From a virus, in the UHGV virus genome UHGV-0171999: a stretch of 64,000 bases of DNA. The stretch is one strand, 5' to 3'. Shown here one piece after another: positions 49,196 to 49,962 of this stretch; position 1 is the stretch's first letter, and the number at the start of each line of letters is the position of its first letter. The notes under the pieces were generated by a model, which did not search any database, was not told where the DNA came from, and worked only from the letters and a program-made list of their open reading frames with translations. A program made the translations under genes and the position numbers.

Positions 49196-49684
49196 ATGAA
49201 TATATTTGAAATGTTACGTATAGATGAAGGTCTTAGACTTAAAATCTATAAAGACACAGAAGGCTATTACACCATTGGTATTGGTCATTTGCTTACCAAA
49301 AGTCCATCACTTAGTGTTGCCAAATCTGAATTAGATAAAGCTATTGGACGTAATTGCAATGGTGTAATTACAAAAGATGAGGCTGAAAAACTCTTTAATC
49401 AGGATGTTGATGCTGCTGTTCGCGGAATTCTGAGAAATGCTAAATTAAAACCAGTTTATGATTCTCTTGATGCTGTTCGGCGCTGTGCATTGATTAACAT
49501 GGTCTTCCAAATGGGGGAAACCGGCGTAGCGGGATTTACTAATTCTTTACGCATGCTTCAACAAAAGCGCTGGGATGAAGCAGCAGTAAATCTAGCCCAA
49601 TCTAAATGGTATCGTCAGACACCTAATCGCGCGAAACGCGTAATCTCAACATTTAAAACAGGAACTTGGAAAGCGTATATATGA
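49196..49684 (+). CDS. e: endolysin (T4 lysozyme family)
   Basis: 162 aa; [35 protein letters not shown]... near-identical to T4 lysozyme except the C-terminal residues. Confidence 0.95.
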
Positions 49685-49962
49685 AAACATATAGTGAATT
49701 TTTATCAGAATCTATTCTTAACGAAGCTACTGACACATTTGCAACTAAGCTAGGTGCAGCTTTGGTTGAAGCTGAAAGTCTATTAGCACGTATTTCTGAA
49801 CTTGCTAGTAAGATAGATACTCGCAAATTTGAGCGCACCAGTGATATCGTTAAGCTTGAAGCCTTGTTGCGTATGTGCGATAAACCGGAAGAAATCGCTA
49901 AAAACGGCTCGCTAATGAAACAACGTCTTGAAAAATATATTTCAGGCGCTTCAGAAAAATAG
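49681..49962 (+). CDS. internal-protein-like gene with capsid targeting sequence
   Basis: 93 aa; N-terminus [10 protein letters not shown] matches the MKTY.EF targeting sequence of ipI/ipII/ipIII with an LSE cleavage-type site; ATG overlaps the e stop (ATGA). Confidence 0.6.

Follow-up and report, generated by a model that had tools for sequence, protein, structure and literature searches.

The internal head proteins (Ips) of T4-like phages represent the closest described systems for the gene considered here. Ip1, Ip2 and Ip3 of T4 each inhibit a different variant of the GmrSD type IV restriction system without cross-protection, and at least ten Ips have been reported (PMC12373910). Their common feature is an N-terminal capsid targeting sequence (CTS). 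In the CTS of T4 IPIII, experiments assigned residues 4 and 7 to targeting and residues 8 and 10 to processing, and a 10-residue IPIII CTS is sufficient to package foreign proteins (PMC9026906). Moreover, IPIII is able to act from the cytoplasm without its CTS (PMC9391042).

The window, that is, the whole 64-kb stretch of viral DNA analysed here, originates from a Tequatrovirus, a T4-like phage. At the 20-kb scale it is most similar to E. coli phages, among them vB_Eco_BGP, CHD94UKE2 and EcNP1, with 95-96% identity. The genes of interest are arranged in the order nudE, e, ORF93, denV, ipII-like and ipIII (Table 1). ORF93 consists of 93 codons plus a stop and begins with an ATG which overlaps the TGA stop of e as ATGA, confirming the ORF that a sequence-only reading of this DNA had placed between e and denV. 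A TTG at 49666, which one record (P0030) uses as the start of a 98-aa product, was rejected as an alternative, since a CTS has to stand at the N-terminus and the homologues all begin at MKT. The C-terminus of e (…WKAYI, then stop) is unlike that of T4 e (164 aa), and the identical …WKAYI end is present in RB69 e.

Table 1. Coordinates of the features at the e-denV locus of the window
Feature	Coordinates	Strand	Evidence
Two T4-type late promoter motifs TATAAATA upstream of e	49162-49169, 49175-49182 (span 49162..49182)	+	Motif search
Gene e, endolysin, 162 aa	49196..49684	+	Pfam PF00959, E 2e-13
Mosaic block: 3' end of e, ORF93, denV, ipII-like, ipIII CTS	49583..50793	.	MAFFT and blastn versus RB69
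ORF93, Ip5-family internal head protein gene, RB69ORF127c homologue	49681..49962	+	PHROG 3499, E 1.2e-46
Propeptide with CTS, residues 1-15	49681..49725	+	Motif scan, L-x-E sites, conservation in relatives
Predicted mature protein	49726..49959	+	ProtParam, alignments, AlphaFold2
Intergenic module upstream of denV	49964..50017	+	RNA fold, dG -18.5 kcal/mol, z -3.3
denV, endonuclease V, among ip genes; ATG 50021	50021..50434	+	Pfam PF03013, E 4.7e-14
ipII-like, 86 aa, MKMYQEFIIE…, RB69ORF125c homologue	50441..50701	+	PHROG 2667 'internal head protein', E 4.9e-20; RB69 125c translation
ipIII, 192 aa, MKTYKEFIAE…	50765..51343	+	PHROG 5341, E 1.8e-117

Elsewhere in the window, ipI (43289..43603, +) is frameshifted relative to T4, with the indel at ~43464-43469. 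T4 ipI reads GCT AAA AAG GAT with a run of five A, where the window has four. The reading frame thereby changes after residue 60, and the window encodes 44 out-of-frame residues in place of the last 35 of IPI*. In this stretch, all 12 of the 12 closest relatives among the matches listed have one extra base (412 vs 411 nt). The frameshift may be an artefact of sequencing through the homopolymer, or else this phage has recently lost the GmrSD inhibitor IPI.

ORF93 is already known and annotated as a member of the Ip5 family and as the homologue of RB69ORF127c. The sequence-only reading had regarded it as an extra, unrecognised gene whose body resembled nothing recognisable, and neither of these claims holds. 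The PHROG 3499 profile 'internal head protein' covers residues 1-87 of the 93, and T2 Ip5 is homologous over its full length (BLASTP, 48% identity over 84 aa, E 5e-23). The identical 93-aa protein occurs on 541 public contigs under the UniRef and RefSeq name 'internal head protein', and its 90% cluster includes RB69ORF127c. Among 50,697 phage records searched by tblastn, 239 carry the gene at ≥80% identity and at the same locus, where RefSeq again uses 'internal head protein' and many GenBank entries use 'hypothetical'. In a further 258 records the match is ~48-51% identical and corresponds to the gene known as ip5 in T2 and PP01. The T2 gene is placed between 57B and ip7 in the classical ipI locus. 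Divergent members of the family are likewise found directly 3' of 57B/Acb1 in the ipI locus, some of them with a 4-nt start/stop overlap, and several lineages are only 44-60% identical to ORF93. The name Ip5 is taken from database annotation. Ip5 of T2 was reportedly named in 1994, and the Ip5 of T2, RB70, PP01 and ime09 is said to be among the ip genes attributed to the study of Repoila et al. from that year.

Wider searches returned few additional relatives. A single-sequence search of a 5.8-billion-protein index retrieved near-identical proteins only, and an exhaustive HMMER search of 1.84 billion representatives gave just 4 clusters. A family profile search recovered T2 Ip5, RB70 Ip5 (Q38378) and a few metagenomic members. 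By these searches the family is small and restricted to T4-like phages. Pfam and NCBIfam scans produced no match for ORF93. Beyond the CTS, the window holds no paralogue of it elsewhere, and the two ip loci of T4 (62-76 kb of the record) contain no homologue beyond the 11-residue CTS. Consequently, a T4 orthologue with a non-packaged role, named by the sequence-only reading as a possible refutation, does not exist in those loci.

The likeness to T2 Ip5 extends over the whole protein. Both share an MKT[YF].EF N-terminus, an [LI]-x-E at residues 13-15, membership in PHROG 3499 and the motifs conserved in the alignments (KLGxALxEAExL..RI.ELA and EIAKNGS.MK.RLE), together with the nearly invariant Cys66. 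The predicted helical fold is also the same, the ORF93 model matching that of the homologue from VR26 (BFVD, E 3e-5). On the other hand, the two proteins are ~50% diverged, and the C-terminus of ORF93 is 9 residues longer. ORF93 is located between e and denV whereas Ip5 follows 57B in the ipI locus, and, unlike Ip5, ORF93 lacks a promoter module of its own and overlaps the e stop. Phage ime09 carries both types, Ip5 in the ipI locus (10405..10662) and a copy identical to ORF93 at e/denV (1919..2200). These paralogues are ~48% identical, and the retention of both argues for distinct specificities.

RB69ORF127c (NP_861817; RefSeq 'internal head protein') of the Mosigvirus RB69 is closer still, being 100% identical to ORF93 over residues 13-93. 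It occupies the same place between e and denV, downstream of an e gene with the same C-terminus. The difference lies in a compensated frameshift over codons 5-12, which yields MKTYMNFYQNLS and removes both E6 and the LSE site. Compared with the window (49692..49716), the RB69 sequence lacks one nucleotide and carries an extra one 21 nt away, and Y4, F7 and LNE 13-15 are kept. RB69ORF127c was sequenced in 2003, and the frameshift could be real or could reflect errors in that sequence.

With the T4 Ips, ORF93 shares the N-terminal CTS, the L/I-x-E processing motif and a similarly small size. It also lies in the same type of locus, the hypervariable ip locus of T-even phages, where the CTS-bearing ipII-like and ipIII genes adjoin it around denV. 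By analogy, ORF93 would be expected to follow the common route from core through cleavage to ejection. The resemblance ends there, as no sequence similarity to the T4 Ips is found past the first ~11 residues, and ORF93 is predicted to be all-helical whereas IPI* has two beta sheets flanked by helices (PMC3012670). AlphaFold2, run with a 12-sequence alignment, gave a model of three helices (residues 4-44, 53-65 and 69-91) with a mean pLDDT of 85 and a pTM of 0.65. The helical body proposed in the sequence-only reading agrees with this model. Structure searches with this confident model returned only the VR26 family member and generic coiled coils. The predicted fold is a generic helical bundle and offers no clue to function.

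The N-terminus of ORF93 is, judged by motif and conservation, a bona fide CTS. A six-frame scan of the 64 kb found exactly four ATG-initiated ORFs starting with MK.[YF].EF, at 43289 (ipI), 49681, 50441 and 50765, against a mean of 0.03 in shuffled windows. The proposal that ORF93 shares its CTS with ipI, the ipII-like gene and ipIII is therefore well founded. Furthermore, Y4, F7, L8 and E10 of ORF93 fit the determinants mapped in the T4 IPIII CTS. Across the family, M1, T3 and F7 do not vary, K2 hardly does, and the residue at position 4 is aromatic, also in the distant members with only 44-60% identity.

Two L-x-E sites are present in the N-terminus of ORF93, LSE at residues 8-10 (E10 codon 49708-49710) and LNE at residues 13-15 (E15 codon 49723-49725). 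The sequence-only reading had chosen the former as the cleavage site. LSE is indeed there, but it is lost in the homologue P0004 (LTV) and in RB69ORF127c (YQN), while both of these keep LNE at 13-15. In homologue P0019, residues 8-10 and 13-15 both read LSE, and in T2 Ip5 they read ATK (no site) and ITE. The site kept in the closest relatives is, on these alignments, LNE 13-15 and not LSE 8-10. Distant family members have their L-x-E at residues 8-14 instead, and no family member in the alignment is without an [LI]-x-E in its first 15 residues. The idea that E15 is invariant across the family was rejected, as the wider alignment places the site of the distant members at 8-14. The mature protein most likely comprises residues 16-93, possibly after an earlier cut at E10. 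As calculated with ProtParam, cleavage after E15 would give a protein of 78 aa and 8.6 kDa with a pI of ~8.1, and cleavage only after E10 would give 83 aa with a pI of ~6.3. Mature ORF93 is thus near neutral, and the ipIII product of the window is basic (pI 9.5).

The arrangement of expression signals suggests when ORF93 is made. Both late promoter motifs upstream of e are embedded in a hairpin in which the e Shine-Dalgarno sequence is paired (RNA fold 49140-49215: dG -17.2 kcal/mol, z -4.4). Gene e of T4 has the same arrangement, in which late transcripts start inside the hairpin and the ribosome site is thereby freed. No promoter module is dedicated to ORF93, and its only Shine-Dalgarno sequence is a weak GGAAAG ~8 nt upstream. 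For these reasons it is likely to be co-transcribed late with e and translationally coupled to it via the ATGA overlap. Such late timing would suit a component of the prohead. Owing to the same lack of a dedicated promoter and the weak Shine-Dalgarno sequence, the copy number of ORF93 per head may be low.

The module between ORF93 and denV has a comparable design. In it, a promoter-like GTTTAC (49964-49969)-N18-TACTAT (49988-49993) is enclosed by a 10-bp hairpin (49970-49979/50008-50017) that sequesters the denV Shine-Dalgarno sequence GGAGG (50011-50015). Upstream of denV in T4, the same layout is found with compensatory changes in the stem (TCTCCTGTAG/CTACAGGAGA). The GTTTAC…TACTAT site, which scores below the threshold of a consensus promoter scanner, is regarded as a putative promoter. 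This layout suggests that denV may be translated from transcripts starting inside the hairpin and silenced on read-through, mirroring gene e. Modules of the GTTTAC…TACTAT type also border ip genes in T2 and in the ipI locus of the window. In the ipI locus, a stretch of ~70 bp recurs in nearly identical form, reading TTTCACAAAGTTGTTTACATA…TGATACTATTA…ATCAA… and followed by a ribosome site and ATGAAA. In T2 (L003, 3428..3500 and 3756..3827) it precedes both ip5 and ip7, and in the window (43575..43652) it is located 3' of ipI and runs into the next small ORF (ATG 43652). This promoter/ribosome-site unit probably serves as a cassette boundary.

The e-denV-vs.8 locus is highly variable among T4-like phages, and six distinct gene orders were found. 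T4 has e-ipIII-ipII-denV-vs.8, and the window shares e-ORF93-denV-ipII'-ipIII-vs.8 with EcNP1. Phage ime09 has e-ORF93-denV-Ip4-vs.8 in addition to the Ip5 of its ipI locus, and the metagenomic contig L010 has e, an ORF93-like gene, an ip gene (91 aa), denV and a further ip gene (99 aa). RB69 is organised as e-127c-denV-125c-124c-123c. In fD1, e is followed by denV and a 157-aa 'Head protein', which has the position and length of ime09 Ip4. In ime09, a CTS-bearing ORF of 187 aa similar to RB69ORF149c (MKTYAEFLTEAAKLPS…; 6626..7189, -) lies between e.8 and the tRNA genes, and the window has no CTS-bearing counterpart of it. The e.8/tRNA position would be a third site for ip-type genes.

Comparison with RB69 revealed that this part of the window is a mosaic. 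A 1.2-kb block is ~98% identical to RB69 (L015, 6092..~7300), whereas the flanking DNA, with nudE and most of e on the left, shows 60-75% identity. The left edge of the block falls inside e, where position 49582 is the last to differ before near-identity sets in. The right edge at 50793 coincides with the end of the ipIII CTS codons, and similarity resumes only at vs.8, with 85%. The block points to a recent exchange between phage genera. Conserved short sequences were reportedly proposed as recombination junctions by Repoila et al. in 1994. A role of the CTS codons and the repeated promoter modules as such junctions would fit the present data, because the right edge of the block lies at CTS codons and the modules flank ip genes. 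Accordingly to this model, ip cassettes would be swapped among phages at a second hypervariable locus formed by e, denV and vs.8, with the CTS codons and the promoter/hairpin modules as junctions.

Taken together, ORF93 is probably a functional internal protein of the Ip5 family which is packaged, processed and ejected, and which most likely blocks a host defence protein. The following course can be envisaged. ORF93 would be co-transcribed from the two late promoters of e and coupled to e via ATGA, as the anatomy of the locus suggests. The CTS (MKTY.EF…), with the same motif as that of IPIII, would direct the protein to the prohead's scaffolding core. The gp21 prohead protease would then remove the propeptide by cutting at L-x-E behind E15, perhaps with a further cut behind E10. 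By analogy with the T4 Ips, the mature helical protein of ~8.6 kDa would stay in the head and be ejected with the DNA. Once in the cell, and again by analogy, it would most likely bind and block one first-line host nuclease or defence protein.

The anti-defence idea is a reasonable fit to the current literature on Ips. The literature searched yielded no virion mass spectrometry, N-terminal sequencing, injection assay or defence target for ORF93 or Ip5, and the one T4-like virion proteome examined, that of fD1, is uninformative, the gene being absent from that phage. Two papers on UPEC phages touch on internal head proteins only briefly, and the paper on the Durham collection leaves them undiscussed. 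No similarity in sequence or structure was found between ORF93 and the known GmrSD inhibitors Ip1, Ip2 and Ip3. The DNA of RB69 is not glucosylated as that of T4 is. RB69 lacks a glucosyltransferase (PMC11162368). A target strictly requiring glucosyl-hmC is less likely, since the same mature protein occurs in RB69. In addition, a screen of ip4-10 from T4-like phages saw no reproducible inhibition of any GmrSD variant tested, although its ip5 may be a paralogue other than ORF93 (PMC12373910, Supplementary Fig. 9). The negative screen and the identical mature protein in RB69 together temper a reading based on GmrSD and glucosyl-hmC. It is conceivable, though a tentative proposal, that processed ORF93 is injected and neutralises a defence beyond those of the characterised Ips, either another GmrSD subtype or a first-line system other than GmrSD.

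A different role inside the head has to be weighed against the anti-defence role. A function in assembly or ejection has long been proposed for IPII and IPIII. By extension, ORF93 might be packaged and act within the head as a minor scaffold or core accessory, or as a DNA counter-ion for assembly or ejection. In IPIII mutants, heads assemble more slowly and the burst is smaller, and gp22 and the internal proteins are purified together (PMC9026906). The elongated, helical model of ORF93, resembling coiled-coil segments, is in line with such a role, as is the failure to find a defence target for ip4-10 (PMC12373910). However, a near-neutral mature protein (pI 6.3-8.1) would be a poor counter-ion for DNA. 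A general assembly factor is excluded, as only some Tequatrovirus records contain ORF93, and neither the two ip loci of T4 nor fD1 have it. Moreover, the exchange of the cassette between genera and the coexistence of paralogues fit an arms-race gene better, and all three T4 Ips of known function are defence inhibitors. A purely head-internal role is therefore unlikely.

It is also quite improbable that ORF93 is made and left unpackaged, its CTS-like N-terminus being a recombination scar on an ordinary late cytoplasmic protein. It is true that the RB69 block ends on its right side at CTS codons, and the frameshift over codons 5-12 of RB69ORF127c indicates that the CTS consensus is not strictly kept. 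The literature searched likewise yielded no proteomic evidence that ORF93 is packaged. Nevertheless, the N-terminal pattern described above (M1, T3 and F7, the aromatic residue at 4 and an [LI]-x-E within 15 residues) holds family-wide, and even the RB69 variant retains Y4, F7 and LNE 13-15. A 10-residue CTS from IPIII packages foreign proteins (PMC9026906), and expression late in infection together with e, as presumed here, would coincide with prohead assembly.

Substitutions in the gene bear on whether ORF93 is functional at all. The copy in EcNP1 differs by 7 synonymous and 1 non-synonymous changes (dN/dS 0.04), and the distant copy on contig L010, with 89% amino-acid identity, by 23-25 synonymous and 13 non-synonymous changes (dN/dS 0.12). 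This pattern shows ORF93 to be a functional gene under strong purifying selection. That it is a chance ORF or a decaying remnant between e and denV, as the empty Pfam and NCBIfam scans, the 'hypothetical' label in many GenBank records and a few truncated or frameshifted copies (BYEP02, P0008 with 49 aa and P0021 with 66 aa; vB_Eco_F25, P0024) might suggest, is scarcely credible, being effectively refuted by the substitution pattern and opposed by full-length copies in ~239 phage records and 541 contigs, by a pLDDT of 85 reached from only 12 sequences and by family lineages diverged to 44-60% identity.

Among phage proteins, the internal proteins are the first to encounter the host cytoplasm, and all three T4 Ips of known function disarm type IV restriction enzymes. 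It is therefore reasonable to take any uncharacterised Ip family as a pointer to a defence system or subtype. In the case of ORF93 the lead is not new, as Ip5 was named decades ago, hundreds of genomes carry an annotation for the protein, and one earlier screen of ip4-10 found no hit. The present analysis adds a corrected cleavage site, strong purifying selection, the coexistence of paralogues and the 1.2-kb inter-genus block, making ORF93 a sensible but not urgent candidate for host-range screens. If ORF93 does neutralise a defence beyond those of the characterised Ips, its target would act whatever sugar is carried on hmC, because the identical mature protein serves both the glucosyl-hmC Tequatroviruses and RB69, and the e3'-ORF93-denV-ipII' block would be a transferable host-range module.
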